This document shows, piece after piece, positions 2,836-48,784 of a stretch of 64,000 nt of DNA; position 1 is the first letter of the stretch, and each line of letters opens with the position of its first letter. The notes beneath the pieces are model-generated. The model did no database searches. It saw nothing but the letters and a program-made list of their open reading frames with translations, and was not told where the DNA came from. Made by a program: the position numbers and the translations under genes. Origin of the DNA: an uncultured Acidobacteriaceae bacterium (lineage in GTDB: Bacteria > Acidobacteriota > Terriglobia > Terriglobales > Acidobacteriaceae); contig CAVPCB010000078.1 in the NCBI GenBank assembly GCA_963702285.1, positions 7,004 to 71,003 of the forward strand, given 5' to 3'.

Positions 2836-3047
2836 TCAGGATGTCGGTCGCCCCACCGGCGCGCCCGACCGCAGGCCCATCCAGCGAAAGATGCTCATCG
2901 CCGGACACCAGTTCGTGAACGCCGACTGCAGGAGATTGAGTCCGACAAAGGCAGTGAGCCACAGCCAATTGAGAGAAACCCAGTGAGCCAGCGCGAGCGA
3001 AGCCAGAACCATAACGCCCGCCAGCAGACGAACGGCACGTTCGACAG

Positions 3048-3051
<4 letters not shown>
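2836..3051 (-). CDS. DUF2892 (YgaP-like) small membrane protein
   Basis: 71 aa with two TM helices and the family-typical LLQSAFTNWCP segment. Its start overlaps the RND stop by 4 nt. Confidence 0.7.
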
Positions 3052-6292
<3,241 letters not shown>

Positions 6293-6296
<4 letters not shown>

Positions 6297-7426
6297 CGCT
6301 GCGCCTCGTTCCCGGGTTCGTTCGAGGACTCGATGCGCTTACCCGCCAGGTCGCGGTCGCCCGGATCGTTCACCAGCTTTTCGCCTGCCGCTAACCCGGA
6401 AAGTATCTCCACTCGATCGCCATGCCGGTTGCCCACCGTCACGTAGCGCAGCTGGGCCACGCCGTTTGCGTCGAGCGCGTACACGCAGGCCAGCGACCCG
6501 CGCATCGCCACCGCCGACTGCGGCGCCAGGATCATCGGCTTTATCCCGCCAGGAATGACGGCCGCCGCATACATCCCGGCGCGCAGATTCTTCACCGCCG
6601 GAAGATCGAGCTTCACCAGGAAGCTGCGACTGGCCGGATCGGCAGCAGGTACGATCTCGGCCACCGTCCCGTTCAGATCCGCAGCGTCGATCCCTTCCAC
6701 GCTGACCGCGACTTTCATTCCTGCGCGTACCGATCCGATCAGCGATTCGTCCACCGTCGTATAAACCTGCAGTGGACCCTCACGATCGACTTCAAGCAAA
6801 GGCATCCCCGGCGCCGCCAGCGTTCCTGGGTCGGCCATCCTCGCGGTCACCACACCGGCAAACGGTGCATGCAGAGTCGTGTAGCCCAGCTGCGTGCGCG
6901 CGCCGGCCACCGCCGCTTTCGCCTGTTCGTTCTGCGCCGCATAAGCGGCGACTTGTAGCTGTGCCCCCTCGGACCGCTTCTCCACTTCGTCGAATTCCTG
7001 CGGGCTCACGCTCTTCTGCTCCTGCAGCATCCGATAGCGCGCCAGCGTCTGCGCTGCCAGCGAGGCCTGCGTCTGCGCCACCATCTGCTGCTTCTGGGCG
7101 GCGATTTCCCCAGCGGCTGCCTGCTCCAATGCCGACTGCATCGCCGCATCGTCCAGCGTCACCAGCAGCTGCCCTGCGCGCACCCGTTCGCCCGCCTGCA
7201 CCAGCACCTGGCGGATATGCCCGGGAACCTGCGCGGAGATCATGGCTGTCTCCTTCGCATGCACCGTTCCCGTGGTCTGAATCAGCTGCGGCGTCTGCGC
7301 CGAGATGCTCTCGACCACGGCCGCCTGCACCGTCGGCGGCGGCGTGGGAGCGGGATTGCTGCCATGCGAACAGCCCAGCAACAGCATGAAGATGAGAACG
7401 AGGGACAACGACAGTGCGCGTTTCAT
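6293..7426 (-). CDS. efflux RND periplasmic adaptor (MFP/HlyD family), lipoprotein
   Basis: 377 aa with lipobox LLLGC, a coiled-coil hairpin (AAAGEIAAQKQQMVAQ...) and beta-barrel domains. It overlaps both neighbours by 4 nt. Confidence 0.9.
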
Positions 7427-8814
7427 TGAAGGTTCTCCGCTGAATCGGGTGTGAGTTGGCCGGTGGCATAGAGCAGCCCCGCGTACGCAACCGTATTTCC
7501 ATAGGCCGCGCGCCAGTAGTTGTTCTGGCTCTGCCGCTGCGCATCTTCGGCGCGCAGCAGATCGGTCATGGTGGCGAGCCCGGCATCGTAACGGTTGCGC
7601 AGGATCCGCAGGCTCTCGGCGGACTCATCCATCGCAGCCCGCGCCGTTGCCACCATGCGTTCGGCAGTCCGGTGATCGGTGAAGGCCCGGCTCACCGCCA
7701 GACGAATCTGCTGCTCCTGCCCGCTCTCCTGTGCCGCCGCCTTCTGCTGCGCTGCCCGTGCCTCTTCCAGATGCGCCCGCTTGCCCAGCGGCAGAATGTC
7801 CAGGTTCAGCTGCGCTCCGGCAACCCAGTTGTTGCCCCCATCGCCGGCAAAAGTCTGCCGATCCATCTCCCAGTTGCCGTAAGCGCTCACCTGCGGGAAG
7901 TAATCGGACCGCGCGGCCTTCACCGCCTGTTGCTGTGCGGCCGTCTGCTCGGCCAGCGCCTTCAGATCCGGCCTCTCTCTGACGGCGGCAGCAACATCCT
8001 CCGCAAGGTTGCCCTCCGGATAGCTCTTCGCCTCCATGGGCTTCAACTCGGGGTGAATGTCGATGGTGCTTCCCATCGCCGCCTCCAGCTCTGCCCAGCC
8101 CGTCTCCGCCGCGCCCTCCGCTGCGATCGTCTCCTGCTGGCGCGCCGACAGGTTAACCTGCGACCCCAGCAGATCGGAATCGATTGCCAGACCGGCCTTC
8201 ACCCGCGTCTGTGCGTCGTGCAGCAGAGCCTCTGCCGTCTGTTGCTCCTGCTGCGCCACCTCGACTTGCCGCTGCGCATACAACACATCCTGGTAGGCTC
8301 GCACTACCTGAAACACCACGCCCTGACGCACCGCGCCGCTCATCGAGGTCGCGCTGGCCGCGCCCAGCCTCGCTGCGTGGATCTGCTGCTGCGATTCAAA
8401 CCAGTTGAAGAGCATCCACTGGCCGCTCGCCCGCGTAACGAAATCGCCCACCGGCGTCGGCCGATTCAGCGAGTCCACCGAAAAGTCACTCTGAGCGAAG
8501 CGTTGCTGGCGCAGCTTCGTTCCAAACACGTACACCGGGTCGTTGCCACGCGAAAGGTCCTCCGTAAAGTTGAGTCGCGGCAGCAGCGCTGTGCGCGCCA
8601 TCGAAGCACCCGCGCTCGCAGTCTGCACATCGGCTCCCGCCACGGCTATTTGCGGATTCTGTCCCAAAGCCCGATCAATCGCCTGACGCAGCGTCAGCAT
8701 CGGCGCCTGGGCTTGAACGCCAAAGGGCATCAGAGCCACCAGCCCCGCCACGGCCCACCATTTCCAGCGCAAACTCCTCATCGTCGGCTCAACCTCAACG
8801 GCTCCGCTGCGCAC
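7423..8814 (-). CDS. TolC-family outer membrane efflux protein
   Basis: 463-aa ORF. The signal peptide begins at the second Met (start probably 8781: MRSLRWKWWAVAGLVALMPFGVQAQA). Two OEP repeats are present. Confidence 0.9.
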   Translation of the reverse strand: MRSGAVEVEPTMRSLRWKWWAVAGLVALMPFGVQAQAPMLTLRQAIDRALGQNPQIAVAGADVQTASAGASMARTALLPRLNFTEDLSRGNDPVYVFGTKLRQQRFAQSDFSVDSLNRPTPVGDFVTRASGQWMLFNWFESQQQIHAARLGAASATSMSGAVRQGVVFQVVRAYQDVLYAQRQVEVAQQEQQTAEALLHDAQTRVKAGLAIDSDLLGSQVNLSARQQETIAAEGAAETGWAELEAAMGSTIDIHPELKPMEAKSYPEGNLAEDVAAAVRERPDLKALAEQTAAQQQAVKAARSDYFPQVSAYGNWEMDRQTFAGDGGNNWVAGAQLNLDILPLGKRAHLEEARAAQQKAAAQESGQEQQIRLAVSRAFTDHRTAERMVATARAAMDESAESLRILRNRYDAGLATMTDLLRAEDAQRQSQNNYWRAAYGNTVAYAGLLYATGQLTPDSAENLQ

Positions 8815-8871: not shown

Positions 8872-9741
8872 TTACAGATTTGCCGGGAAATTTTTGAGCC
8901 GCAGATATTCTTCGGTCAGTAGCCGCCGCAGAACCACCTGACCTTCCTCTTCAGGACACACGTCCAGCGAACGGCAGCGATCGATGGCCCGCTTCAGGTC
9001 GTCAATGAACGCTACGCACGCGGGACACGCCTCGATGTGCCGCCGCATGCGTTCACAGCTTTCCGGCTCCAGCTTGCCATCGAGGTACTCCGACAGATTT
9101 GCGAAAATCTCGCCGCACGGTGCCGGCCTTTTCCTTGTCAACTTCTTCCGCTTCCGGCCCTCTGGAATCCCCCGCAGCAGCTTCGCCATCTCCTGCCGCA
9201 CCAGAAGCCTCGCCCGGTGCAGTCTCACCCGCACCGTACCGGGCTGGATCGACAGGATTCTCGCCACCAGATCGCTGTCCAGTTCTTCCATATCGTGCAG
9301 CACCAGAACAATTCTGTAACGGGGTGGCAACGCCAGAACCGCCTGATGCAGCAGGTTGTGATCCTGCCGTTCCACCGCCTGTTCCTCAGGACCAGCCGCA
9401 GAGTCGGCCAGCAGCAGAGATTCCAGTTCGGCATCGTCCGGCACCAGTTGATTGAGAGCGATGGTTTTCTGCCAGGCCGCCGTCCTCCGCCCCTGCCAGC
9501 AGCGATTCTTCGCTGCCGTGTACAGCCACGCCGACAGCGCCTCCGGATCCTCGATCTTCGCCAGGTGCGGCAACGCCTTCAGCAGCACCTCCTGCGCCGT
9601 GTCTTCGCCATCCTCGCGATGGCCGCACACTTTGATCCCAAACGACAGCACCGTCCGGCGCAAAAGGCCGAGCGCACGTTCCACGCTGGGCTCATCGCCC
9701 CTGCGCAACAGCGCAATCGCCTCTTTCAGTTCAGGACGCAC
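8872..9741 (-). CDS. ECF (sigma-70 family) sigma factor with a C-terminal fused zinc-anti-sigma (HxxxCxxC) Cys-rich domain
   Basis: Region 2 (DTAQEVLLKAL...WLYTAAKNRC) and region 4 (RIVLVLHDMEELDSDLVARILSIQPGTVRVRLHRAR) are followed by a basic linker. Then comes C-x19-C-x7-H-x3-C-x2-C...C...C (HIEACPAC). Confidence 0.85.
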   Translation of the reverse strand: MRPELKEAIALLRRGDEPSVERALGLLRRTVLSFGIKVCGHREDGEDTAQEVLLKALPHLAKIEDPEALSAWLYTAAKNRCWQGRRTAAWQKTIALNQLVPDDAELESLLLADSAAGPEEQAVERQDHNLLHQAVLALPPRYRIVLVLHDMEELDSDLVARILSIQPGTVRVRLHRARLLVRQEMAKLLRGIPEGRKRKKLTRKRPAPCGEIFANLSEYLDGKLEPESCERMRRHIEACPACVAFIDDLKRAIDRCRSLDVCPEEEGQVVLRRLLTEEYLRLKNFPANL

Positions 9742-9835: not shown

Positions 9836-10396
9836 CTACAGAAATACCACCTGCTTCGATTCGCTGATCATCTGGATGAACGACCCAACCCCGACATAAT
9901 CGATATTGGGGTAATCGATCATTTCTTCTTCCTTCAGCCCCATCACCCCCATCGACATCTCGCACACGTGAATGCGCACGCCGAACTCAGCCGCGTCCTT
10001 CATCAGTTCTTCCAGTGACTTGACGCCGTGCTGTTTCATCACCGAGCGAATCATCTTCGGACCGATGCCCGCCATCTGCATCTTCGAGAGCGGCAGAGCC
10101 TGCGAGCCGCGCGGCAGCATCCAGCCGAACATCTTGTCCAGAAATCCCTTCTTCGCGGATTTCTTCGGGTCCCGCAGCGCTGCGGTCGCCCAGAAGGTGA
10201 AGAACATATCCACCTCCATGTCATAGGCCACCGCCCCAAGCGCAATAATGAAGGCCGCAATCGTCGTGTCCAGGTTGCCGCTCATCACCCCGATGGCGAG
10301 CCGGCCCTCCCCTGAGGATTTCTCCAGCGCTTCCACCCGTTCCTTCAGTTCCGTCAATGCGCTGTGCAGATCGAGATCAATCGGTGTTGTCGTCAT
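9836..10396 (-). CDS. DsrE/DsrF-like (COG2210, DsrE3-type) sulfur-relay protein
   Basis: Real start is MTTTPIDL at 10396; the track ORF is over-extended to 10930. Family-typical FFTFWA...LPLSKMQMAGIGPKMI...HVCEMSMGVMG with the conserved Cys. Confidence 0.8.
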   Translation of the reverse strand: MTTTPIDLDLHSALTELKERVEALEKSSGEGRLAIGVMSGNLDTTIAAFIIALGAVAYDMEVDMFFTFWATAALRDPKKSAKKGFLDKMFGWMLPRGSQALPLSKMQMAGIGPKMIRSVMKQHGVKSLEELMKDAAEFGVRIHVCEMSMGVMGLKEEEMIDYPNIDYVGVGSFIQMISESKQVVFL

Positions 10397-10413
10397 GGCT
10401 TTCCTTCCTGGAC

Positions 10414-11577
10414 TTAGGCTTCGGCCGCCGCTGCCCGCCGCTCCGGCGCATGGCGCCAGGCAAACAGTGCCAGAGCAAGAGGACGATAGAGGACATGTGC
10501 GAATCGTGTGAGGGGCAGCATGGCGATCAGGTCCATCGCCAGCACCACGTGGGTCAGAAAAACGGCGTATCCTGCCGCCGTCACCGGCAAATAAACCAGC
10601 ATCTCCGTCAGCAGCCCTGTGAACACCGTCATTGCCAGCAGAACCGGAAAAAACCAGTCGGCGAACGTCCGCTTGCGCCAGTGCGCCTCGCTGTCGGGTT
10701 CCGCCCGGAACAGCATGATGGCCAGCCCATACAGGCAGATCGCACCGCCCACCGCGCCCATCACCCGCATCGGATACCAGGGTGGCACCGGCGAGCCGAT
10801 TGGCTTGAGCAGATAATCGAGCGTGGTCGCCAGAAGCATCGCGAGGAATCCACCCATCACCGACAGGTGAACCACCCAGGCACGCAGATACCACGGTGCG
10901 GATGCGGGCCCAGGTTCCTCGGCATCGCACTGCTGGAAGCGCCGGTGGCTCAGAGCCTCGACAACGGCCGAGGCCACCGCTCCCGGAAGCGCCCCCAGTC
11001 GCAACGACACGCCTTCACGCCGGCGTTCGCTTCGGAAGCGCAGAAACATGGAAAGAAGACCGCCCACGAGGCTGAGCCCTACGACCACGAAGAGGAAAAT
11101 ACCGATCAGGTGAATCCACTCGCCGGAAACAAATTCAAAGAACGGCAGATGGGCCCCCGCCACATTCGCCCGGCTGAGCAGCAGCAGTGCAAAGAACAGC
11201 GACAGCACCCCGAATACGAGCAGATTGCCCATCACCGAGCGGCTCGCCAGCGTCGCCAGACCCGTGAAGTCGTACCGGGAAATCGCGTAGCTGCGCGCCG
11301 CCGCCATAAACTCCGCCGGATCCGCTTCGCGCGGACAGGTACGCGTGCATTCGCCGCAGGCATAGCAGCGCCACAAATCTTCGCTGGCCAGCAGCTCGCG
11401 TTCCATGCCCACCTGCGCCATCCGAATCGTTCGGCGCGGAAAGCCTGCGGAGTCCTGCGCCAGCGGGCACACGGCCGTGCAGTTGCCGCACTGAAAGCAG
11501 GCCTCGACCTCGAGCCTGCCGCCCTTGCCGTGGCGGCGAATCTTCTGCATCAGAACCGGATCGACATCGTGAATCAT
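10414..11577 (-). CDS. QmoC-like protein: HdrC-type 2x[4Fe-4S] domain fused to a multi-TM (HdrE/NarI-like) membrane domain
   Basis: Two CX2CX2CX3CP motifs (CFQCGNCTAVCP, CYACGECTRTCP) followed by about 6 hydrophobic helices with conserved His. No CCG motif. Confidence 0.75.
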   Translation of the reverse strand: MIHDVDPVLMQKIRRHGKGGRLEVEACFQCGNCTAVCPLAQDSAGFPRRTIRMAQVGMERELLASEDLWRCYACGECTRTCPREADPAEFMAAARSYAISRYDFTGLATLASRSVMGNLLVFGVLSLFFALLLLSRANVAGAHLPFFEFVSGEWIHLIGIFLFVVVGLSLVGGLLSMFLRFRSERRREGVSLRLGALPGAVASAVVEALSHRRFQQCDAEEPGPASAPWYLRAWVVHLSVMGGFLAMLLATTLDYLLKPIGSPVPPWYPMRVMGAVGGAICLYGLAIMLFRAEPDSEAHWRKRTFADWFFPVLLAMTVFTGLLTEMLVYLPVTAAGYAVFLTHVVLAMDLIAMLPLTRFAHVLYRPLALALFAWRHAPERRAAAAEA

Positions 11578-11592
11578 CGGCAGCTCCTTCGC

Positions 11593-11901
11593 CTAATGGC
11601 CCTCTCCGCTCTGCGGCGCCAACCCGTAGAGCACGTAGTCGCCCTCTTCGCCCGACTCCGCCGCCTGGCCGTATTTGCGCATCGCGGTCAGGTGCCACAA
11701 CACCTCGTCCGTGGGAAGCGTCAGCTCCGCGGCAATCTTCGGCACCGTAGACGGCTCGCGTTCCAGCACCCCGCGAATCGCCTTGCGCTGCGCGATCATC
11801 GCCTGGTGCTTCTTCCGTTCCTCCGGATGCACGCCGCCGGCGATCGACCGCAGTTTGGCCAGCGCCTGTTTCTGCTCGGATGTGAGTGGTGCCAGACCCA
11901 T
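11593..11901 (-). CDS. small conserved hypothetical protein (winged-helix-like)
   Basis: 102 aa from MGLAPLTSEQ; the track ORF is over-extended. It sits 20 nt after the HdrA-like stop and 15 nt before the QmoC-like start. Confidence 0.45.
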   Translation of the reverse strand: MGLAPLTSEQKQALAKLRSIAGGVHPEERKKHQAMIAQRKAIRGVLEREPSTVPKIAAELTLPTDEVLWHLTAMRKYGQAAESGEEGDYVLYGLAPQSGEGH

Positions 11902-11921
11902 CTCTTTTCCTCTTCCCGCCC

Positions 11922-13797
11922 TCAGGCGACCCCTGCCGGAACTTCCGCGACAATGCCGTCGATCATCGCCTCGTACTGATCCAGGCGCCACCCGTTCACC
12001 TGAATCGCGCGGCTCGGACAGACCGCCACGCACGCGCCACATCCCACGCACAGCCCCGGATTCACCCGCGCCCGGCGCAGCGTGCGGCCGTCTTCCACCA
12101 CGTCCACCATTTGCAGCGCGCCATCGTATTCGCACTGCGTCAGGCACTGTCCCGCGCCTTCACACAGCGATGCGTTCACCTCGGCCACGTAGGGATTCAG
12201 CTCAACGGCATCGTGCGCGAACATCGCCGCCGCCTTCACCGCTGCAGCGCCGGCTGCGGAAAGCGTCTCGCGAATGTCCATCGGCGCCTGCGCCGTGCCC
12301 GCCAGCAGCACGCCGTTGACGGAGACTTCCACCGGCCGCAGTTTCGGATGCACTTCCTGAAGGAACCGGTCCTCCCCCGTCGGCAGCTTGATGCTGTCCA
12401 CCAGTTCAGGAATCGCATTCGGCACCATGCCCGTGGCCAGCACCACCATGTCCACCGGCAACCGCAATTCCTCGCCCCACGTGAGCGTGTCCTTCACGCG
12501 TACCGCCAAAGGCGTCTGTCGAGCGGCGCTTCCGTCGGCGCGCTCCACCACCGGCGGCTCCTCGCCGCGATAACGGAAGAAGACCACCCCAGCCTCGCTG
12601 GCCGTCCGGTAATAATCTTCGGCACCCCGAGCGTAGGTGCGAATGTCCTGATACAGATCGAAGACCGCTGTCTCGGGAAAACCCCGGCGCAGCGCAATCT
12701 CCTGCTGCAGCGCGGTTGTGCAGCAGACCCGCGAACAGTAGGTGTTCAGGCGGCCGTCCGGACCCGGCGTATGAACGTCGTCGATCTGCCGGCTGCCCAC
12801 GCAGTGAATAAACGCCACGCTGCGAATCGCTCGTCCCTCGACCCGCAGCGTTTTCGTCCCGGCATCGGCATTCTTAAGCAGCTGAATGAAGTCCGGCATC
12901 GTCACCACGCCCGGTTCCGTCGCGTACAAAAACTCACCCTCGGCCGGAACGTAAGGCCGGAACCCGGTGGCGATGATCAGCGCGCCCGCCGTCAGCGACG
13001 TCATAGCCGATTGCCCCTCAGGGCCAAACTTCCCTTCGATCGTGACCTGAAAATTGCCCACAAACCCGCTGACCGTCTTTACGCGGCTGTTCAGCAGAAC
13101 TTCAATGTGCGCGTTGCTCTCCACTTCCTTGCGCAGCTCGGCAACAATTTCTTCCGCGTCGGCTTCTGTCGGATACACAGCGCCCCGCCCCAGCAACCTT
13201 CCGCCCAGCGCGCCCGGTGCTCTCCACCAGCACCACATGCACGCCGCAGCCCGCCAGCTCCGCAGCCGCTTTCATGCCGGCGATGCCGCCACCCACCACC
13301 AAAGCAATACGATGATTCGGCAGCCGGATCTGATCGAGCGGTGCATCGCGACGCGCCTTGCCCACCGCCGCTGAAACCATGCGGATGGCCTTCTCCGTCG
13401 CTCCCGCCGGATCGTGCCGGTGTGCCCATGAGCACTGCTCGCGCAGATTGGCGTGCTCGTAGAGGTAAGGATTCATCCCACCCCGCACCACCGCGCCCCG
13501 GAACGTCGACTCATGCAGAAAGGGCGTGCAGGAAGCCACCACCACCCGATTCACGCCGTGCGTCAGGATGTCTTCCGTGATCATCTGCTGACCCGGATCC
13601 GAACACATAAAAGTGTGAATCTTCGCCGTGGCCACGCCAGGGATCTGCCGTGCCGCCTCCGCCACGCGCTCCACATCCACCACGTCGCCGATGTTGCCGC
13701 CGCATTGGCAGATATAAACGCCGATCTTCGCCTGCTCCTCGCAGCGCTCGCAGCCCGGCGTGATTTCCGCTTGTTTCCCTTCTGCGCGATCGCTCAT
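11922..13797 (-). pseudogene. long HdrA-like FAD/FeS oxidoreductase (QmoB/HdrA type), interrupted by one frameshift
   Basis: The N-terminal part (MSDRAEG...IGVYICQCGGNIGDVVD...VVGGGIAGMKAAAELAGCGVHVVLVE) is in one frame and the rest (APGALGGRLL...CVGCGACVAVCPSRAI) is in the next. Total span is 1876 nt, which is 3n+1. The ATGA start/stop overlaps the upstream hdrA-like gene. Confidence 0.8.
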
Positions 13798-15113
13798 ACC
13801 AGCGCCTCCACGGGCTCTTGTTGCTGTTGCCGCAGCCACCGCGTCACCTGCATGGCGGCCGCACCGGCTTCCGCAATGGTGTCCACAATGTCCTTGGGTC
13901 CGGCCGCGGCCCCCGCCACAAAGATCCCAGGCACCGAGGTCGCCGACGGGGAGGTCAGCGATGTTGTCGCCACAAAGCCGTCCGGACCGGGATGCACCGG
14001 CGTACAAGTCTCCGCGTGCCACTCCGGAATCATCCCCTGCGCCAGCACCACCAGATCGTGCCGGCACGATCCCACCGAGTCCGCCGCGTCCTCGGTGCGC
14101 TCCACGTGCAGCATCAGGTCGCCGTCTTCGCCCGGGACGATGCGCGCCACCTTGCCGCGCACGAAATTGATGCCCATCGCCTTCGCGTTCTGATAAAACG
14201 TCTCGTACCCTTTGCCGAACGCGCGAATATCCATGTAGTAGATCGTGATGTCCGCAATGGGCAGCGCTCCGGACAGCAGCATGGCCTGCTTGATCGCGTA
14301 CATGCAGCACACCCGCGAACAATACGGCACCCCGATCGAGGCGTCGCGCGAACCCGCGCACTGCACAAACGCGATCGTGCCTGGAATTTTTCCATCCGAT
14401 GGCCGCAGCACCCGGCCGTACGGTCCGTGCGGCGCCAGCAGCCGCTCCATGGTCAGCGCGGAGATGATGTTCTTGCTGCGCTCGGCGTTGTACTGCGGCT
14501 TCAGCGTCATCGCGTTGAGCGCGAATCCAGAGGCCAGCACCACCGCGCCCGCCTCGATCTCCACCGTCTCCGGCTGCTGATCGAATTCAATCGCCCCCGT
14601 CGGGCACACGCGCGCGCACGTTCCACAGGTGCCGCACACCTCCGGATTCAGCACCGCCTTCTGTGGAATCGCGTTGGTGAACGGAACCGCAATCGCCCGC
14701 GTGGCGCCCAGCGAAGCGTCAAACGGATCCACGCATTCCGTATCGCACGCGTACTCGCACAGCCGGCAGCCGATGCACTTTTCGTTATTCACATAGGTGG
14801 GCTTGCGCGTCACACGAACCCGATGCCCCAGGTCCGCCGGCTCAATCCCATCCACCACCGTGCTGGTCAGGATCTCAATATTGGGGTGATGCGCCGCCGC
14901 CGACATCTTCGGAGTCGTGATGCAGCTGGCGCAGTCCAGCGTGGGAAACACCTTGCTCAGCGCGATCATGTGGCCGCCGATGCTCGACTGCTGTTCGCAG
15001 ATCAGTACCTTCTGTCCCTGATCCGCCAGGTCGAGCGCCGCCTGCAATCCGGCGATGCCCCCGCCCACCACCAGGACATCGACGCGGCCGGATTCCAGCG
15101 AGCGAATCATCAT
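13794..15113 (-). CDS. HdrA-like FAD/FeS oxidoreductase (QmoA/HdrA type)
   Basis: 439 aa from MMIRSLE, with GGAGGG upstream. Contains VVGGGIAGLQAALDLA, FPTLDCASCITTPK, two ferredoxin motifs (CIGCRLCEYAC, CGTCGTCARVCP) and YCSRVCCMY. Confidence 0.85.
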   Translation of the reverse strand: MMIRSLESGRVDVLVVGGGIAGLQAALDLADQGQKVLICEQQSSIGGHMIALSKVFPTLDCASCITTPKMSAAAHHPNIEILTSTVVDGIEPADLGHRVRVTRKPTYVNNEKCIGCRLCEYACDTECVDPFDASLGATRAIAVPFTNAIPQKAVLNPEVCGTCGTCARVCPTGAIEFDQQPETVEIEAGAVVLASGFALNAMTLKPQYNAERSKNIISALTMERLLAPHGPYGRVLRPSDGKIPGTIAFVQCAGSRDASIGVPYCSRVCCMYAIKQAMLLSGALPIADITIYYMDIRAFGKGYETFYQNAKAMGINFVRGKVARIVPGEDGDLMLHVERTEDAADSVGSCRHDLVVLAQGMIPEWHAETCTPVHPGPDGFVATTSLTSPSATSVPGIFVAGAAAGPKDIVDTIAEAGAAAMQVTRWLRQQQQEPVEALV

Positions 15114-15139
15114 CCGTCCCTCCTTTGCGGGCTCTGCCC

Positions 15140-15628
15140 TCAGGCAGCTCCCGGCAGCGCTGCGTTCCGCAGCCGTGTGCGCGATTCCGCTTCCAGCTGT
15201 GCCGCCAGCACGCGGTTCACCGGCCCCCGTGCCGCCAGTTCCTCGTTCAGCATCGAGACCTCTTTCAGAAACGCCTTGATGCAGACTGTGCAGATGGCTG
15301 TGAGGCGAATGCGCGCCGTCTCCAGGCCCCCGTCCTTCATCCGGATCGTCATGTCGTCGATCCGCCGCGCCAGGCGGTCGTACGCCCCGCGATACGGACA
15401 GTCCGACCCGCACGCCGCGATCAGAATCCCGTCCACCCCGCGGCTCCATGCGTGCAGATAAAAGTCTTCGGGAAACAGCGCCGGCGAAGGAACCCGCAGG
15501 ATATAGACATTCGCGCCATATTCCAGGTGCGCTTTGCCCACCGCATCCGCTCCCGGATACGCACAGCGCTCCGTCGCCAGCACCAGAATCTTCGGAATAT
15601 AAGAACCGTTCTCCATACGACCCCTCAT
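15140..15628 (-). CDS. MvhD/FlpD-like hydrogenase iron-sulfur subunit family protein
   Basis: 162 aa with ILVLATERCAYPGADAVG...ACGSDCPY, typical of the methyl-viologen-reducing hydrogenase delta-subunit fold. An alternative start is at 15616. Confidence 0.7.
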   Translation of the reverse strand: MRGRMENGSYIPKILVLATERCAYPGADAVGKAHLEYGANVYILRVPSPALFPEDFYLHAWSRGVDGILIAACGSDCPYRGAYDRLARRIDDMTIRMKDGGLETARIRLTAICTVCIKAFLKEVSMLNEELAARGPVNRVLAAQLEAESRTRLRNAALPGAA

Positions 15629-15660
15629 GCCCGCGTGAGCGCCAGGCCTCCCGGCGCGTA

Positions 15661-15912
15661 CTACTTTTTTCTGCGCACAAACAGCCGGTCGTGTCCCTCC
15701 GCCTCCGTGCAGCCCAGAAATTCATGCCCGACTTTGCCCGCCCATGCCGGAATGTCTTTCCTCGACCCCTTGTCGTTCGATTTGATTTCGATGACCTGGC
15801 CCACCTTGATGGCGCCCATGCCCTTCTTCGCTTCCAGCAGCGGCCCCGGACACGCCGTACCCCGCGCGTCGATGACCTTGTCTGCCGTGATCGTTGCCGT
15901 TGCTTCGCTCAT
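15661..15912 (-). CDS. tusA: TusA/SirA-family sulfurtransferase
   Basis: 83 aa with the conserved DARGTACPGP active-site Cys motif. Confidence 0.85.
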   Translation of the reverse strand: MSEATATITADKVIDARGTACPGPLLEAKKGMGAIKVGQVIEIKSNDKGSRKDIPAWAGKVGHEFLGCTEAEGHDRLFVRRKK

Positions 15913-15960
15913 CTGACTCCTCCAATTTCGTTGCCTTCGCGCGTCTCGAAGACACGCCCG

Positions 15961-17298
15961 CTAAAAGCTCTTGCCAAACCCGATCGTTACCGAGTTCTCC
16001 GACATCTTGCTCGTCACGCTGGTCCCCGGAATCGCTCCCTGCGCGGAGATCCACGGGCCGGTGATTGAATTCTGGAAGGCGTGATAGTACGTCACTACGG
16101 CATCCCACCCATGCATGTGCTGGATAATGCCGCCCGAGACGTGATGCTGCACAATCGCCGGAGCCGGCGTATTGAAAAACGTGTACTCAGCCGGAATCGG
16201 ATTGCCCGAGTAGTTGTAGCCGACCATCAGCTTGGTCGATGCAGCCACCCTCTGCTGCACGCCCCCGCCCACCGCCCAGATGTTGTGCCATCCAAAACCG
16301 GCGAGCGAGCCGTCGGCTTTGTATCCGACCTTGTCGAAGCCCGCGGTATTCGCGTAGTCAAACCAGCGAAGATCGACGCCCAACAGCGTGCCCCTGCGCG
16401 CTGCAACGCCCGCGCCCACAGAAACCACCTGCGGCAGATCCATGTGGAAGTTCATCGCGTGCGATGCCCCGGTCAGATCCTTGCGATTCCAGGAGAATTT
16501 CTGAAACCACACTGGTGACCGCCACGAGAGGCCAATTTTCACCGGACCCGCCACATAGTGAACTCCCGCGCTTGCGCCCAGGCCCGGAGCCGGCGCATTG
16601 TTTCCCGCTGAGAGGTAGTAGGGCATTGTGCTGCCCGCCATCACCGGCGGCGAGAACGGCGCAGGAATCACCTGCAGCATCGAGAGCGCCGGAATGATCG
16701 AGAACCCCGCCGAGAGCCGCTCGGTAAACTCACGCGAGACTCCCATCGGAACTGTCACCAGCATGTAGTTCGACCGGATGCGCCCGAAACCAAATCCATT
16801 CGGCGCCTGCGGTGTCAGGATCGGATTCGAGAATGTCGTGTTCTGGTCATAGTCCACGCCGAAACCACTCACTCCCAGCATCGCCGCGTGATAGGCATTG
16901 GGACTGCCCAGGCGATGGTAGATAAAAGAAAATCCCGGCATCAGCGAAGTATCGGTATGGCTAACCGTCGTTCCGCTCAGCGTGCCGGCAGGCATGCCAG
17001 GCCCAAACGCATTCGCATCCACCGTGCTGCTCAGCGAACGCCAGGGCGTGAAGATGGTCCCGTGAAACTCGAAACGAAAACCGGAAAACCTCGTCGCGCA
17101 GGCAGGGTTCCACGCAATCGAGCCCGTCGCATCCAGGCACAGCCCCGTGTCCGCTCCGCCCATGGCTTCATTCACTGGACCTGCGCCATGGAGAAAATGC
17201 CCATCGGTTGCCAACAGAGCGGTTGGACAGAGGAGCAACAAAAGCATCGTGAACACGAAGCCTGCATTGGAGCGGGACCAGAAAATGCGCGTTGTCAT
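15961..17298 (-). CDS. outer membrane transport protein, OMPP1/FadL/TodX family
   Basis: Signal peptide, GAGPVNEAMGGADTG N-terminal motif, alternating beta-strand pattern, C-terminal ...GFGKSF. Confidence 0.8.
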   Translation of the reverse strand: MTTRIFWSRSNAGFVFTMLLLLLCPTALLATDGHFLHGAGPVNEAMGGADTGLCLDATGSIAWNPACATRFSGFRFEFHGTIFTPWRSLSSTVDANAFGPGMPAGTLSGTTVSHTDTSLMPGFSFIYHRLGSPNAYHAAMLGVSGFGVDYDQNTTFSNPILTPQAPNGFGFGRIRSNYMLVTVPMGVSREFTERLSAGFSIIPALSMLQVIPAPFSPPVMAGSTMPYYLSAGNNAPAPGLGASAGVHYVAGPVKIGLSWRSPVWFQKFSWNRKDLTGASHAMNFHMDLPQVVSVGAGVAARRGTLLGVDLRWFDYANTAGFDKVGYKADGSLAGFGWHNIWAVGGGVQQRVAASTKLMVGYNYSGNPIPAEYTFFNTPAPAIVQHHVSGGIIQHMHGWDAVVTYYHAFQNSITGPWISAQGAIPGTSVTSKMSENSVTIGFGKSF

Positions 17299-17487
17299 GG
17301 ATGGCCTTCCTCACGAACCCCCCCGACTCGGCGCGACGCACCGGCGAGAGATTCCTGAGGAAGACAGGGCACGTCAGGGACCGAAGTGCCGACGTTGCGT
17401 TTTGAATGGCTTGAGAGTGGAGCAGAACTCAGGACGAAACGTTATGTTGCACGAAAACGTCGCAGATGAAACATCCTGTCGGGTCGC

Positions 17488-18936
17488 CTACTGGAGCTTC
17501 AGCTCCCTGATCCTGCGCCAGAGCGTCGACCGGCTCAGCCCCAGTTCCCGCGCCGCCTCGGCTCTTTTCCAATGATGCTTTTCCAGTGCTGCCAGCAAAC
17601 GCAGGGCTTCCGCGTCCCGCACCTCGGGTTCGACCTGCCTCAGTTGCGGGTCCGTACCCGTCTCTTCCTCGCCTGCGCCCGCTCCGCCAAGGGGATGCAG
17701 GATCTCCTGCGGCAGGTCCTCCGGAAGAATCGTCTCCCCGCGCGCCACCGCCACTCCATATTCGATGACGTTGGCCAGCTCGCGCACATTGCCCGGCCAC
17801 GCATAATCCAGCAGGATGCGCATCGCCTGCGGTGAAATGCGCCTCACCAGGCCACGCTGGGCCGTGATGCGGCTCAGCAAATGATGCACCAGCGGCGGAA
17901 TATCTTCGCGGCGCTCCCGCAGCGGCGGTACCTCCAGCGGCACCACGCACAGCCGATAATACAGATCTTCGCGGATCTTTCCCTGGCGTAATGCACAGCG
18001 CAGGTCGGCGTTGGTCGCCGCAATGATGCGTGCGTGCGTCGTCCTCGTCGCGCTTTCCCCCACCCGCTCGTACTGCCCTTCCTGCAGCACCCGCAGCAGC
18101 TTCACCTGCAGTTGCGGCGGAAGCTCCCCAATCTCATCGAGGAACAGCGTTCCCTGCGAGGCCAGCTCGAATCGACCAATCCGTTCGCGCACCGCCCCCG
18201 TAAATGCCCCACGCACATGCCCGAACAGTTCCGACTCCAGCAGATCGGCGGGCAGTGCCGCGCAGTTCACCGCCACGAACGGTCCGCCGCGGCGCGGTGA
18301 ACTCTGGTGAACCGCTCGCGCCACCACCTCTTTTCCAGCCCCGCTTTCTCCGGTGACCAGCACCGTGGCTTCGCTGTGTTGCAGAGTCTCGACCAGCCGA
18401 AAAATCCGCTGCATCGCCGGCGAACACCCCACCACACCGGAACAGAAGACCGGCGAGTCGGGGCAGGACTGCTCCTGTTCGGCCGGCCGCAGCAGGATCA
18501 GGAAACGCACCAGCGGATCGCAAATCTCGGAGTGATCCGTGACCATAGGGGCCGTGGTGATCGAAACCAGCCGCGGTCCGAAATCTTCGAACCGCAGCGT
18601 TGCCCGCCATCCTTCGCGCACCTGCCCATCCAGCAAAGCCTGGCGGAGCTGGCCGCGTGTGCCAAATAAATCTTCGCCCAGCAGCTCTTCCACCGGGCGT
18701 CCCGGCAACTTCGCCGCAACCCCCGGGCCAAGAAAATCGTTCAGCAGCTTCGAAACGTGCACGATGCGGAACGATGGGTCGAGACAGATAAAGGCCCGAC
18801 CGACCGAAGCCAGCGCGCGCGTGATGCCGTGCAAGGCCGCCTCGGTCAACTGGCTCAGCGACGGCTCACACCGGCTTGCAGCGTCCGTTGCAACAGCGGA
18901 GGCCATCTTCGAACTTCCTTCCTGCCCAACCCACAC
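17488..18936 (-). CDS. sigma54-dependent transcriptional activator (PAS + AAA+ + Fis-type HTH)
   Basis: Walker [15 protein letters not shown] loop, ELFGH, and a C-terminal HTH ([19 protein letters not shown]). Confidence 0.9.
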
Positions 18937-19223: not shown

Positions 19224-19310
19224 TGGTGCCGAAGAAGGGACTCGAACCCCCACACCCTTGCGAGTACGTGGACCTGAACCACGCGCGTCTGCCAATTCCG
19301 CCACTTCGGC
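19224..19310 (-). tRNA. tRNA-Leu (anticodon CAG), CCA encoded
   Basis: 87-nt cloverleaf: GCCGAAG acceptor, anticodon loop TTCAGGT, long variable arm, GGTTCGAGTCC T-arm, encoded terminal CCA. Confidence 0.9.
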
Positions 19311-19874: not shown

Positions 19875-20227
19875 GGGGGCGTCACGGTTTCGACGGGATT
19901 GCTTGCGGCATAGAGGCATGCCGGGGTCTGGGCACCCGTAATCGCCTGGAAAACCATAATTGCCAACACCAATCAGCTGGCATACGCAGCCTAATTAGTT
20001 AGACTGCCGTTCTCCTCGGCTTCGCCCTTGGGCTGAGAGCAGGACGTCGAACAGAGGGCTGGTTGCCGACCCTCGGTCCGTGGGCCGGCAGCGAGATCAT
20101 CGGACTAGTTTCCGGCGTTTCTTGTCCGCTCTAAGCGCCGAAAGCGAAACTTCCGAACGGACTGAGCATGGAGTCTCTCTGCTGTCAACGATTTCGGACG
20201 CGGGTTCGACTCCCGCCGCCTCCACCA
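19875..20227 (+). ncRNA. ssrA: tmRNA (ssrA)
   Basis: 5' GGGGGCGTCACGGTTTCGACGGG and 3' GGACGCGGGTTCGACTCCCGCCGCCTCCACCA, acceptor stem with G3:U. Tag ORF at 19962-19994 encodes ANTNQLAYAA followed by TAA. Confidence 0.9.
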
Positions 20228-20237
20228 GCCTTCGCGA

Positions 20238-20760
20238 AGCGAAGGCTGTCGCGCCGAAGCAAAGCGTAGGCGGACCAATCATGGAAAGCGAAGGCTGTCG
20301 CGCCGAAGCAAAGCGTAGGCGGACCAATCATGGAAAGCGAAGGCTGTCGCGCCGAAGCAAAGCGTAGGCGGACCAATCATGGAAAGCGAAGGCTGTCGCG
20401 CCGAAGCAAAGCGTAGGCGGACCAATCATGGAAAGCGAAGGCTGTCGCGCCGAAGCAAAGCGCAGGCGGACCAATCATGGAAAGCGAAGGCTGTCGCGCC
20501 GAAGCAAAGCGTAGGCGGACCCATCATGGAAAGCGAAGGCTGTCGCGCCGGAGCAAAGCGTAGGCGGACCCATCATGGAAAGCGAAGGCTGTCGCGCCGG
20601 AGCAAAGCGCAGGCGGACCAATCATGGAAAGCGAAGGCTGTCGCGCCGAAGCAAAGCGTAGGCGGACCAATCATGGAAAGCGAAGGCTGCCGCGCCGGAG
20701 CAAAGCGCAGGCACATGCGTAGCGAAGGCTGTCGCGCCGAAGCAAAGCGTAGGCGGACCA
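20238..20760. repeat. 49-bp tandem repeat, about 10 full copies plus 1 partial
   Basis: Unit AGCGAAGGCTGTCGCGCCGAAGCAAAGCGTAGGCGGACCAATCATGGAA starts at 20238, 20287, 20336 ... 20679 and 20721. A few SNP variants occur. Confidence 0.95.
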
Positions 20761-20789: not shown

Positions 20790-21029
20790 ATGAAATACGT
20801 CTACATCCTCCAGAGCCTCGCTCCAGAAGAGCATTTCTATACGGGGATCACCGACGACCTCGATGCCCGACTGGCAAAACACAATTCCGGCGCTGTAACG
20901 CATACTTCAGAGTTCCGCCCATGGCGTATCAAGAGCTATATCGCGTTTACAGATGAGGCTCGTGCGACTGCTTTTGAAACGTACCTGAAGTCCGGCTCAG
21001 GCCGCGCATTTGCGAAAGCCAGGCTCTAA
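20790..21029 (+). CDS. GIY-YIG nuclease family protein (small, UPF0213-like)
   Basis: 79 aa from MKYVYILQS...HFYTGITDDLDARLAKHN. The track ORF fuses it in-frame to the repeat array. Confidence 0.75.
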   Translation: MKYVYILQSLAPEEHFYTGITDDLDARLAKHNSGAVTHTSEFRPWRIKSYIAFTDEARATAFETYLKSGSGRAFAKARL

Positions 21030-24480: not shown

Positions 24481-24807
24481 TCATCAGGCTGCGATCAGGA
24501 CAAGCCACAGTTGACAGCCGCCCACATCCCCGCATCTCTCCCCAAAAACCAAAACTCTGTCATCCTGAGCGAAGCTTCCGAATTCGTTGCGCGCGCTTTT
24601 TGCGCGCAACAATCAATCCAGACGCCGTCACCCTGAGCGAACGCCGAGCAGCGCTCGGCGAGTCGAATGGGCGAATGGACCTGCATTTCTCGGCTGGAAC
24701 AACCACGAATTTCCACCCGAACGAACTGCATTTCTTCCGCCAGACCCAGCAGAATCCACGTTACCCAAGTCAGTTGCAAACCTACCCAAAACCTCTACGC
24801 TGCGATC

Positions 24808-25140
24808 ATGCGCGACCGCAGCTACTACGTCTACATCATCGCCAGCCGCACCCGCGTTCTCTATACCGGCATGACCGGCAACATCGAAGCCCGTGCCGCC
24901 CAGCACAAAACCAAATACTTCGCAGGATTCACAGCCGACTACAACTGCTGCCGCCTCGTCTGGTACGAGAGTTATGACGACCCCAACCGCGCCATCGAAC
25001 GCGAAAAACAAATCAAGCGGTGGATCCGCGCCAAAAGGCTCGGCCTCATCCAAAGAATGAACCCCACCTGGATCGATCTCAGCGAAAACTGGGGCAAGCT
25101 CCTCCAGCCGATCTCACCACAGCTGGGAATCTCTCGCTGA
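24808..25140 (+). CDS. GIY-YIG nuclease family protein
   Basis: 110 aa from MRDRSYYVYIIAS...LYTGMTGNIEARAAQH...REKQIKRW. The upstream part of the track ORF is non-coding repeat. Confidence 0.8.
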   Translation: MRDRSYYVYIIASRTRVLYTGMTGNIEARAAQHKTKYFAGFTADYNCCRLVWYESYDDPNRAIEREKQIKRWIRAKRLGLIQRMNPTWIDLSENWGKLLQPISPQLGISR

Positions 25141-47119: not shown

Positions 47120-48784
47120 ATGGCAGACGCAAAACTTCAAATCATTCCTTTAGGCGGTCTCGGCGAATTCGGCATGAACTGCCTCGCCCTCCGCTACAAA
47201 GACGACATCGTCGTTATCGATGCGGGCCTGATGTTTCCGGAGTCCGAATTGCTGGGCGTCGACATCGTCGTACCGGACATTTCGTACCTGGTCGAAAACA
47301 AGCCGCTGGTCCGCGCCATCGTCCTGACGCACGGCCATGAGGATCACATCGGCGGGTTGCCGTGGATTCTTTCCGAGCTGAACGTGCCCGTTTACGCCAC
47401 CGAGTTCACGCTGGCCTACGTCGAAGGCAAGCTCGAAGAGCACGCGCTGCTCGACGACTCGGAGCTGATCGAGATCGTGCCCGGGGAGAAGTTTTCGCTC
47501 GGCGCCTTCACCATCGAGCCCATCCGCGTCACCCATTCCATGGTGGATTGCGTGGCCCTGGCCATCGAGACTCCGGTTGGAATCGTCGTACACACCGGCG
47601 ACTTCAAGATCGACCTCTCGCCGCCGGACGGCAAGGCCTTCGACCTGCACCGCTTCGCCGAATACGGCAAGCGCGGCGTGCTTGCGCTGCTGCAGGACTC
47701 GACCAACGTGGACCGGGCCGGCTACACGCCGAGCGAATGGTCGGTGAAGCCGCGGCTCGACGAGATTTTCTCGCGAACGAAGAAGAAGCTTTTCTTCAGC
47801 TGCTTCTCATCGTCGATCTACCGCATCCGGATCGCCGTGCGAACTGGCGCGGCTTCACAGCCGCAAGGTGGCGATTGTCGGCCGCTCGATGCTGGAGTCG
47901 ACGGAGATCGCGCAGGACCTCGGCTATCTCGACCTGCCGTCCGTCGCTGATCATCCACCCGGGACAGGTCTCCGACTATTCGCCGGAGCAGGTCATGATC
48001 CTGATCAGCGGCACGCAGGGCGAGCCGATGAGCGCGCTGAGCCGCGCCGCGGTGGACAACCACAAGCACGCGCGCATCGCTGCCGGGCGACACGGTCATC
48101 CTGAGTTCGCGCGTGATTCCGGGTAATGAGAAGTCGATCTTCCGCGTGATCGACCACCTCTGCCGCCGCGACGCCGACGTGATCTTTGACGACGGCTCGC
48201 ACGGGCTGATCCACGTAAGCGGACACGCGAGCCAGGAAGAGCAGCGGCTGATGATCAACCTGCTCAGGCCGAAGTTCTTTGTCCCGATCCACGGCGACTA
48301 CCGGCATTTGAAGAAGCACGCCGAGGTCGCGCAGCGGCTGGGCGTGGTAGATCTGGCGCTGGTGATCGAGAACGGCGAAATCCTGGAGCTGGACCGCAAC
48401 AACGCTGCGAAAGGCGGCAAAGTCACGGCGGGGCGCGTCTGCATTGACTCCGGCTCGGCGAGCGACGTGGTTGAAGACCTGGTGATCCGCGACCGCCGGC
48501 ATCTTTCAGAAGACGGCTTCGTGCTGCCGATCCTCACCATTAATAAGTTAAGCGGGAAAGTGGAGCGCCAGCCGGAGCTGGTTTCGCGCGGCTTTGTCGG
48601 GGCGGAGCCTGGACTGATGGAAGGCGCGCGGCAGGTGGTGACGGCGACGCTGGACAGTTCCAGTCCGGAAGAGAAGGCCGACTACGGGGTGATCAAGGAG
48701 AAGATCCGCATCGACCTGAAGCGTTACATCCAGAAAAACACCAGCCGGCGGCCGCTGATCATGCCGGTGATTCTGGAAATCTGA
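47120..48784 (+). pseudogene. rnj: RNase J family beta-CASP ribonuclease, interrupted by three frameshifts
   Basis: HGHEDHIGG metallo-beta-lactamase motif. Homology continues through frames 2 -> 0 -> 1 -> 2 with junctions near 47840, 47940 and 48081. The C-terminal part (IPGNEKSIFRVIDHL...HVSGHASQEE) returns to the starting frame. Confidence 0.85.

Follow-up and report, generated by a model that had tools for sequence, protein, structure and literature searches.

The DNA inspected was a 64-kb window of one genome, taken from contig CAVPCB010000078.1 of an uncultured Acidobacteriaceae bacterium, and the gene cluster considered here occupies window positions 9836-18936 on the minus strand. The cluster combines subunits related to heterodisulfide reductase (Hdr) and to the membrane redox complex Qmo with sulfur carriers of the TusA and DsrE families. 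It couples, across phyla and in a way not previously reported, a Qmo/Hdr-family complex to TusA/DsrE carriers and to a predicted sulfur-responsive regulation.

The list of open reading frames (ORFs) for the window contains nine genes on the same strand between 18936 and 9836. In the direction of transcription, these encode a sigma54-dependent activator (bacterial enhancer-binding protein; 17488-18936), a putative FadL/TodX-family outer-membrane channel protein (OMP; 445 aa, 15961-17298), the sulfur-carrier protein TusA (83 aa, 15661-15912), and an MvhD/FlpD-like [2Fe-2S] protein (162 aa, 15140-15628). Next come two HdrA-like flavo-iron-sulfur (FeS) proteins, HdrA1 in the position of QmoA (439 aa, 13794-15113) and HdrA2 in the position of QmoB (624 aa once corrected, 11922-13797). 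They are followed by a Cys-less protein of 102 aa with a predicted ArsR/SmtB-type winged-helix fold (11593-11901), a QmoC-like subunit (387 aa, 10414-11577), and a DsrE-family protein of the long DrsE_2 type (186 aa, 9836-10396). The activator gene ends 189 nt before the OMP gene. The gaps that follow measure 48 nt (OMP to TusA), 32 nt (TusA to MvhD), 26 nt (MvhD to HdrA1), -4 nt (HdrA1 to HdrA2, an ATGA overlap at 13794-13797), 20 nt (HdrA2 to the 102-aa gene), 15 nt (102-aa gene to QmoC), and 17 nt (QmoC to DsrE), and no terminator-like hairpin was found in any intergenic gap from the OMP gene onward. With spacings of 15-48 nt or an overlap, and with gaps free of terminator-like sites, the genes from OMP to DsrE form one operon. 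A preliminary description of this DNA had given the same order, strand, and spacings, and rereading of the ORF coordinates reproduced them. Profile searches against Pfam and NCBIfam upheld its assignments of TusA, the MvhD/FlpD-like protein, the QmoC architecture, and the sigma54 activator.

Subunits of the Hdr/Qmo-type module and its sulfur carriers

The QmoC-like protein contains two CxxCxxCxxxCP motifs, forming an HdrC-like 2x[4Fe-4S] domain (Fer4_8/17), joined to a NarI/HdrE-like membrane domain (Nitrate_red_gam). It aligned with the qmoC model NF038018 over model positions 12-359 of 360, with a score of 197.7 bits against a cut-off of 300. Eight Cys residues, together with His156, His237, His343, and His361, are conserved at 99-100% in 70 orthologues. 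The four conserved His are consistent with ligation of two b hemes, and a hydropathy reading would place the FeS domain and the Arg-rich loops of the protein on the cytoplasmic side. The protein is 26-28% identical to P0365, a library representative that passes the qmoC cut-off (387 bits). Many further library representatives scored 200-270 bits against the qmoC model, so a large non-canonical QmoC radiation exists. Cys217, a loop residue conserved among the proteins studied here, is not special to this family because the canonical representative also carries it. Identity as the tricarballylate protein TcuB was considered for the QmoC-like subunit and rejected (40 bits, versus 198 bits for qmoC).

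Both HdrA-like proteins found their best NCBIfam match in archaeal HdrA2 (444 bits for HdrA1 and 469 bits for HdrA2), the match of HdrA1 covering model positions 141-563. Compared with proteins of known structure, HdrA1 scored 356-381 bits against HdrA (PDB 8rvv and 5odc) and 123 bits against sHdrA (6tjr); the corresponding values for HdrA2 were 385 bits against methanogen HdrA and 96 bits against 6tjr. A sequence search of the PDB returned no Qmo structure. HdrA1 consists of a flavin adenine dinucleotide (FAD) domain, an inserted 2x[4Fe-4S] ferredoxin domain, an FPTLDCASC sequence (DCxxC motif), and a CSRVCC cluster motif, without the N- and C-terminal domains of HdrA. Alignment to the HdrA of 5odc showed that HdrA2 has an N-terminal Cys domain, the FAD domain, a CxGSR...CSRVCC cluster motif, and a C-terminal ferredoxin domain, and that it is without the inserted ferredoxin domain and the FPTxDCxxC motif. 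Relative to the solved methanogen HdrA (5odc, 8rvv), the domain losses in the two paralogues are complementary, the pattern that would be expected of a heterodimer imitating the HdrA homodimer. The Cys of the DCxxC motif in 5odc presumably completes a cluster of the partner protomer. All 14 cofactor Cys of HdrA1 are 100% conserved, as are the motif Cys of HdrA1 and HdrA2 together in orthologues from three phyla. The MvhD/FlpD-like protein matched PF02662 (69.5 bits) and aligned with the C-terminal, MvhD-like part of the HdrA2 model; among its orthologues, Cys113 and Cys116 are conserved at 100% and Cys22 and Cys73 at 87%.

The preliminary description had listed two HdrA-like genes; the identity of both products held, but the second gene is not intact in the window. 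Its span of 1876 nt is no multiple of 3 and contains two overlapping ORFs (13102-13797 and 11922-13238), and deletion of one C at 13216-13217 restores an HdrA2 of 624 aa. Logan contig L004 (run ERR10755948) is 99.95% identical to the window over 6140 nt, with a single gap. At the HdrA2 site, the window reads GAGAGCACCGGGCGC and L004 reads GAGAGCACGGGCGC, and the gene in L004 is intact (624 aa). The HdrA2 genes of relatives are likewise all intact (627-674 aa). Elsewhere in the window, an RNase J-like gene (47120-48784) passes through frames 0, 1, 2, and back to 0 within ~350 nt, which suggests further indel errors of the assembly, or a degraded gene. Because L004 is without the extra C and the RNase J gene is also frame-broken, the extra C was read as an assembly indel; it is probably an assembly error of this kind or a rare variant.

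The two carriers retain their characteristic Cys residues. TusA scored 72.1 bits against PF01206 (cut-off 28.6) and contains the ACPGP motif, in which Cys21 (CPGP motif) is conserved at 100% in 50 orthologues from three phyla. The DsrE-family protein scored 157 bits against PF13686 and contains the HVCEMS motif (DrsE_2/COG2210); its Cys145 is conserved at 100% in orthologues, and it matched a "putative sulfurtransferase DsrE" in the PDB (3pnx, E 4e-25). The initial label "DsrE3-like" is not supported for this protein, and its long PF13686/DsrE2-like architecture argues against it. The DsrE2 equivalog model was missed as well (57 bits, under the 210 cut-off).

Conservation across phyla and sulfur-related neighbors

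More than 300 database proteins are similar to the QmoC-like protein, and a scan of one genome per GTDB species identified 448 stretches that encode a QmoC-like relative. Loci were compared for the best 80 of these 448 stretches, with flanks of ±10 kb; all 80 come from metagenome-assembled genomes (MAGs), and individual loci are given below by L numbers. About 50 belong to Acidobacteriota (Terracidiphilus, Granulicella, and Acidobacteriaceae) and about 25 to Chloroflexota, with four from Planctomycetota or Phycisphaerae and one from Actinomycetes among the remainder. None of the cluster-spanning loci departs from the order TusA-MvhD-HdrA1-HdrA2-102aa-QmoC, even at QmoC identities as low as ~38%. 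MvhD is a separate upstream gene in all loci, and the 102-aa gene was matched in all cluster-spanning loci except L076 and L080. A DsrE-family gene and a gene for an ArsR-type protein with two Cys (2-Cys ArsR) are the usual companions of this core. Because the core order recurs in every full-length locus of the 80, in four phyla, the arrangement is not due to chance, and the connection of TusA and DsrE with the Hdr/Qmo module is stronger than had been claimed from the window.

The nature of the DsrE-family companion varies with phylum. Acidobacteriota and Planctomycetota loci have the long DrsE_2 gene after QmoC. In Chloroflexota loci, the 186-aa DrsE_2 protein is replaced by a DsrE-family protein of 123 aa (e.g., L058, 11301-11672) with a weak PF13686 match and the motif ILCELA. 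The gene for this shorter protein lies just 5' of TusA or just 3' of QmoC and is duplicated in some loci.

Pfam scans and reading of the other ORFs revealed no Apr, Sat, Dsr, CCG/HdrB, LbpA, or Sox protein in the 64-kb window, which bears out the earlier statement that HdrB, AprBA, and LbpA are missing there. When the 1292 flank ORFs from the 80 loci were clustered, none of the families recurrent within ±10 kb resembled Apr, Dsr, HdrB, or LbpA, and a regular expression for the CCG motif matched none of these ORFs. A GcvH-like (LbpA) match was absent from the window scans and from the recurrent neighbor families, the rare neighbors not all having been scanned. The possibility that relatives carry these genes beside aprBA or hdrB/lbpA, so that the cluster would be a split copy of a known system, was thus checked in the 80 loci, with no CCG protein and no recurring apr or lbpA to speak for it.

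Several of the neighbors that do recur are sulfur enzymes. Five acidobacterial loci (L005, L027, L028, L032, and L057) contain a second sulfur unit, which in L005/L027 (14439-20254, with its start retrieved) is composed of a sigma54 activator, a FadL-type OMP, a type III sulfide:quinone oxidoreductase (SQR), a DUF1641 protein, DsrC/TusE, and a DrsE_2 protein of 156 aa. The SQR scored 629 bits against NF049943, a selenoprotein-subtype model with a cut-off of 525, and the activator of this unit in L005/L027 is a 71% identical orthologue of the activator in the window. Because the activator/OMP pair heads both units, it travels with sulfide-handling genes in two contexts. The association of the OMP with sulfur, first suggested from the window, is strengthened by the finding that the orthologous pair heads a type III SQR operon in relatives. 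In 16 loci, mostly of Granulicella-type Acidobacteriota with a few others, a coenzyme A (CoA)-disulfide reductase-rhodanese fusion is encoded directly 3' of the DsrE gene (e.g., L043, 11881-13578; L044, 11993-13690). Other recurrent neighbors, assigned by reading their sequences, are PadR- and LysR-type regulators and NifX-like and TauE-like proteins, and one locus has a DsrE protein, a metallo-beta-lactamase-fold protein, and a rhodanese close by. Five Chloroflexota loci (L063, L072, L075, L076, and L084, at ~11230-14400) have genes directly after the QmoC-like gene that were assigned, by reading only, to the subunits PntAA/PntAB/PntB of a proton-translocating NAD(P) transhydrogenase.

Candidate regulatory genes and the putative outer-membrane channel

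The activator upstream of the operon contains a Sigma54_activat domain (PF00158, 232 bits), AAA_lid_14, HTH_8 (a Fis-type helix-turn-helix), and a weakly matching N-terminal PAS domain. In its sensor domain, Cys51 and Cys139 are conserved at 95% and Cys171 at 89% in 19 orthologues. By analogy with the proposal made for FisR of Cupriavidus, these conserved Cys could sense persulfide. A putative sigma54-type -24/-12 promoter element, cGGtcccTGACGTGCc (17368-17383, minus strand), is located ~70 nt before the start of the OMP gene. When 11 orthologous regions were aligned, a conserved TTGGC-N8-TGC became visible at this place, with the canonical GG-N10-GC spacing, and with CGGT at -24 in the window and in L008, its closest species-level relative. 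A scan with the strict pattern TGGCAC-N5-TTGCW missed cGGtcccTGACGTGCc; its matches were no more than expected by chance, and none was at the right place. Only the alignment of the orthologous regions brought the element to light.

A second candidate regulator, the ArsR-family protein with two Cys conserved at 97%, is encoded 5' of TusA in most loci. Comparison of the window (15913-15960) with L008 (5102-5611) showed that a clean block of ~470 bp containing the ArsR gene is absent from the window, and therefore the OMP gene abuts TusA at a distance of 48 nt. The operon in this organism may depend on the sigma54 promoter alone. FisR (sigma54-dependent) and BigR (ArsR family) are persulfide-responsive regulators of operons for SQR and persulfide dioxygenase (PDO) (PMC7315123). 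The cluster resembles these operons in pairing a sigma54 activator and a 2-Cys ArsR protein with sulfide/persulfide genes, and in the SQR, rhodanese, and TauE-like neighbors found in relatives. It differs in that the effector is an Hdr/Qmo-type complex with carriers and that the sensor domain and the positions of its Cys are not the same.

The OMP of the window gave no Pfam match at E<=0.01, and NCBIfam returned nothing useful. Many of its orthologues at 70-87% identity carry PF03349, and an AlphaFold2 model (pLDDT 61, moderate; plug region poorly modeled) had FadL, TodX, and TbuX as its top structural matches (E ~1e-19, TM-score 0.6-0.7). Together, the PF03349 of the orthologues and the fold match argue for membership in the FadL/TodX transporter family. 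The FadL-type assignment made at the outset therefore stands on orthologues and fold, but not on a direct Pfam match of the window protein.

No family match above threshold was obtained from Pfam or NCBIfam for the 102-aa protein. It has zero Cys and an invariant EVLWHxTAMRKYG motif. Its AlphaFold2 model (pLDDT 82.6) had SmtB, CzrA, NolR, HlyU, and SqrR as top Foldseek matches, which suggests an ArsR/SmtB-type fold; the protein may act as a regulator or as a structural subunit.

Known systems and candidate reactions

Modules of the Hdr and Qmo types play a central part in methanogenesis as well as in sulfate reduction and sulfur oxidation. To our knowledge, they have so far always been understood together with a catalytic partner, namely, AprBA, HdrB, or sHdrB/LbpA. 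Here, an Hdr/Qmo chassis is hard-wired to sulfur carriers and a quinone anchor, without such a partner, in uncultured bacteria of four widespread phyla. Canonical QmoABC is the partner of AprBA in sulfate reducers and Chlorobi, and its QmoB carries a fused MvhD-like domain. The cluster resembles this system in its two HdrA-derived flavoproteins, its MvhD-like module, its combination of HdrC-like and heme-b domains in QmoC, and its full-length QmoC alignment. The differences lie in the divergence of QmoC (26-28% identity, with a score under the cut-off), in MvhD being a separate gene, in the resemblance of the HdrA paralogues to archaeal HdrA, and in the built-in TusA, DsrE-family, and ArsR-fold genes. 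Furthermore, aprBA and sat are missing from the window and from the recurrent neighbors of the 80 loci.

Another known system is formed by the "type II" QmoAB(C) sets of Neukirchen et al. (2023; PMC10504309), whose genes are described as nearer to hdrA than they are to the qmoAB of bacteria and whose QmoC is of a type of its own. They occur with or without Dsr/Apr, no role is assigned to them, and experiments are called for (PMC10504309). A supplementary table of the same work lists an HdrA-"HdrB"-x-QmoC string (WP_106806881-884) in Ca. Sulfotelmatobacter SbA1, a dsr-carrying acidobacterial MAG, and this string is probably the same cluster. In the cluster, the HdrA paralogues match archaeal HdrA2/HdrA best, and the QmoC is non-canonical. 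The searchable text and supplements of PMC10504309 make no mention of a linkage to TusA, DsrE, or ArsR genes or of an internal winged-helix gene. The cluster probably belongs to the type II group. Full-text literature searches found no description of this operon, only the general remark on type II Qmo.

In the sHdr-LbpA system, TusA/DsrE relays feed an Hdr-derived oxidizing complex that has HdrB and LbpA (PMC11094781). In both, a cytoplasmic module derived from Hdr is genetically associated with TusA, with a carrier of the DsrE family, and with a regulator of the ArsR type, and protein-bound sulfane sulfur is the presumed substrate. The cluster differs in having no HdrB1/B2 (CCG), no HdrC1/C2 pair, and no LbpA. 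Its HdrA proteins are not of the sHdrA type (~340 aa, single [4Fe-4S]) and have extra ferredoxin and N-terminal domains, and its membrane quinone anchor is outside the described sHdr gene set. With the methanogen HdrABC-MvhAGD complex (5odc, 8rvv), the cluster has in common the full set of HdrA domains, including the FAD site and FeS motifs, as well as MvhD, with an HdrC-like domain following. It differs from that complex in spreading the HdrA domains over two polypeptides, in having no HdrB and no hydrogenase, and in the fusion of HdrC to a membrane heme domain. The view that the combination fits no described layout therefore holds against aprBA-linked QmoABC, sHdr (hdrC1B1A-hyp-hdrC2B2 with lbpA), and methanogen HdrABC-Mvh. 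It does not hold for the HdrA/HdrA/QmoC module as such, which is not wholly undescribed because type II Qmo sets are already in the literature (PMC10504309).

From the gene content, the cofactor motifs, the synteny across phyla, and the sulfur-related neighbors, we infer an assembly, a substrate, a direction, and a mode of regulation for the complex. The reading that we favor, with a probability of roughly 0.42, is a menaquinone-linked oxidoreductase that acts on sulfide or on carrier-bound sulfane sulfur, is served by dedicated carriers, and most likely works in the oxidative direction. HdrA1 and HdrA2 would pair as a heterodimer in imitation of the HdrA homodimer, MvhD would provide an extra [2Fe-2S] entry or exit point, and the HdrC-like domain of QmoC would connect the flavoproteins with both b hemes and with the quinone pool. 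The two carriers, TusA and the DsrE-family protein, would deliver or accept sulfur as cysteine persulfides. A two-electron step at the level of sulfide and sulfane sulfur would be coupled to menaquinone reduction, for example, carrier-SH + HS- -> carrier-S-SH, or the oxidation of carrier-bound sulfane sulfur. For soil heterotrophs, the payoff would be an O2-independent detoxification of sulfide or persulfide combined with a gain of energy. Expression would respond to reactive sulfur, in most relatives through the 2-Cys ArsR-type repressor. Because the repressor gene is absent from this strain, control would here pass to the upstream sigma54 activator and promoter, which would also drive the FadL-type channel for hydrophobic sulfur species.

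The S0/HS- couple lies at about -270 mV and menaquinone at about -74 mV; electrons would therefore flow downhill to the quinone, and the reverse reaction would be uphill through a NarI-like di-heme anchor. The oxidative direction is favored because of this redox drop and the cost of its reversal, and because the regulators suggest substrate induction and the neighbors include genes of sulfide oxidation. The complex might also have a second, low-potential branch, with flavin-based bifurcation through the ferredoxin-like domains or MvhD. In this form, the operon would encode a hitherto unrecognized, energy-conserving sulfur enzyme, an HdrB-less bifurcating complex that oxidizes sulfide or carrier-bound persulfide supplied by TusA and DsrE. 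Of the two electrons, one would pass downhill through the QmoC hemes to menaquinone, while the ferredoxin domains and MvhD would carry the other uphill to an acceptor at the ferredoxin level. We regard this elaboration as rather improbable.

Several points weigh against a menaquinone-linked sulfur oxidoreductase. None of the subunits has a catalytic site known to cleave S-S bonds or to oxygenate sulfur, and because there is no CCG/HdrB, siroheme, or Mo protein, the proposed flavin chemistry is conjecture. The want of a recognizable catalytic site for sulfur chemistry is the main weakness of all versions considered here. Modules of the HdrA type commonly act as electron hubs, with catalysis left to a separate partner. 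Gene context leaves the direction unsettled, because the neighboring CoA-disulfide reductase-rhodanese fusion is a reductive persulfide enzyme. The comparison rests on 80 loci that are all MAG-derived and, for this genome, on 64 kb inspected for apr, dsr, and shdr, and HdrA2 is frameshifted in this assembly. The preliminary description had suggested chemistry on carrier-bound persulfide, thiosulfate, or sulfite; the link of the carriers to the module was confirmed, but all of this chemistry is conjectural, and no catalytic site for S-O chemistry was identified.

The leading alternative, which we consider unlikely, is that the same complex works reductively, as a persulfide/polysulfide reductase that frees H2S from TusA/DsrE-bound sulfane sulfur. 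It would draw electrons either from menaquinol together with a low-potential donor, by confurcation as has been suggested for canonical Qmo, or from a donor that docks at MvhD, and it would serve to detoxify reactive sulfur species or to respire sulfur under anoxia. HdrA-containing enzymes are classically disulfide reducers, the two flavoproteins with MvhD fit a confurcating design, and persulfide reduction requires no oxygen-adding catalytic site; the CoA-disulfide/persulfide reductase-rhodanese fusion directly downstream in 16 loci points the same way. However, transfer from menaquinol to persulfide through a NarI-type di-heme anchor would be strongly uphill, an HdrB-like site for S-S cleavage is absent from the 1292 flank ORFs, and the reaction would set up a futile cycle with the adjacent SQR.

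Next in order, and also unlikely, is the explanation that HdrA/HdrA/MvhD/QmoC is a generic conduit for an unlinked partner such as AprBA or DsrAB/DsrC, which TusA and DsrE would feed. Canonical QmoABC works in this way with AprBA, the operon itself has no catalytic sulfur site, and the inspected part of this genome is limited to 64 kb. In the supplementary table of PMC10504309, the HdrA-"HdrB"-x-QmoC string of Ca. Sulfotelmatobacter SbA1 occurs in a dsr-carrying genome, but the same paper also reports sets of type II in organisms that have neither Dsr nor Apr. An unlinked partner is further opposed by the neighborhoods: apr, dsrAB, hdrB, and lbpA are not recurrent within ±10 kb of the 80 loci, and TusA is always inside the operon.

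A role that is not primarily in sulfur metabolism appears very unlikely. The complex would then be a bifurcating donor:menaquinone/ferredoxin oxidoreductase, with TusA, DsrE, and the ArsR-fold proteins as redox or thiol sensors or maturation factors. This would suit the best matches of both HdrA paralogues to archaeal HdrA2-type bifurcating enzymes, the Cys-less ArsR-fold protein within the operon, and the PntAB genes read after the cluster in five Chloroflexota loci. It is at odds with the 100% conservation of the catalytic Cys of TusA and DsrE and with neighbors that are sulfur enzymes, and the surroundings contain no conserved gene that could supply a dehydrogenase or hydrogenase partner. 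Finally, a decaying pseudogene cluster in this organism, to which the +1 frameshift at 13216-13217 in HdrA2 and the absence of the ArsR gene of most relatives might point, is hardly credible and was rejected, given the intact HdrA2 gene without the extra C in the independent assembly L004, the intact remaining genes with conserved ligands, and the RNase J gene of the window, whose breaks across three frames point to assembly indels.

Whichever reaction the favored menaquinone-linked sulfur oxidoreductase may catalyze, its identification would give the type II Qmo sets a function and would put to the test a direct action of HdrA flavoproteins on protein persulfides. The cluster may represent a widespread, cryptic sink for sulfide and sulfane sulfur in soils and peat. 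If the bifurcating form were true, it would imply a hidden lithoheterotrophic use of reduced sulfur in Acidobacteriota, Chloroflexota, Planctomycetota, and Actinomycetes that are abundant in soil. In the 2-Cys ArsR protein and the sigma54 activator with its conserved Cys, the operon has a candidate regulatory pair that can be tested, and it associates a channel of the FadL type with sulfur genes.

Outside the cluster, the window contains several further features. Downstream are genes for a fusion of an extracytoplasmic function (ECF) sigma factor with an anti-sigma (zf-HC2) domain (8872-9741), for a TolC-like/membrane fusion protein/resistance-nodulation-division (RND) efflux set (3048-8814, assigned by reading the sequences), and for a small protein with a YgaP-like transmembrane domain (2836-3051). 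RND sets occur near the cluster again in a few relatives (L006/L048, L014, and L050). On the other side are a tRNA-Leu gene (19224-19310) and a tmRNA gene (19875-20227). Immediately after the tmRNA gene comes a tandem repeat with a 49-bp unit in 10.8 copies (20237-20760), and then a gene with a GIY-YIG domain (~20790-21029), with a second GIY-YIG gene at 24667-25140; the region at the 3' end of the tmRNA may be the remnant of a mobile element.

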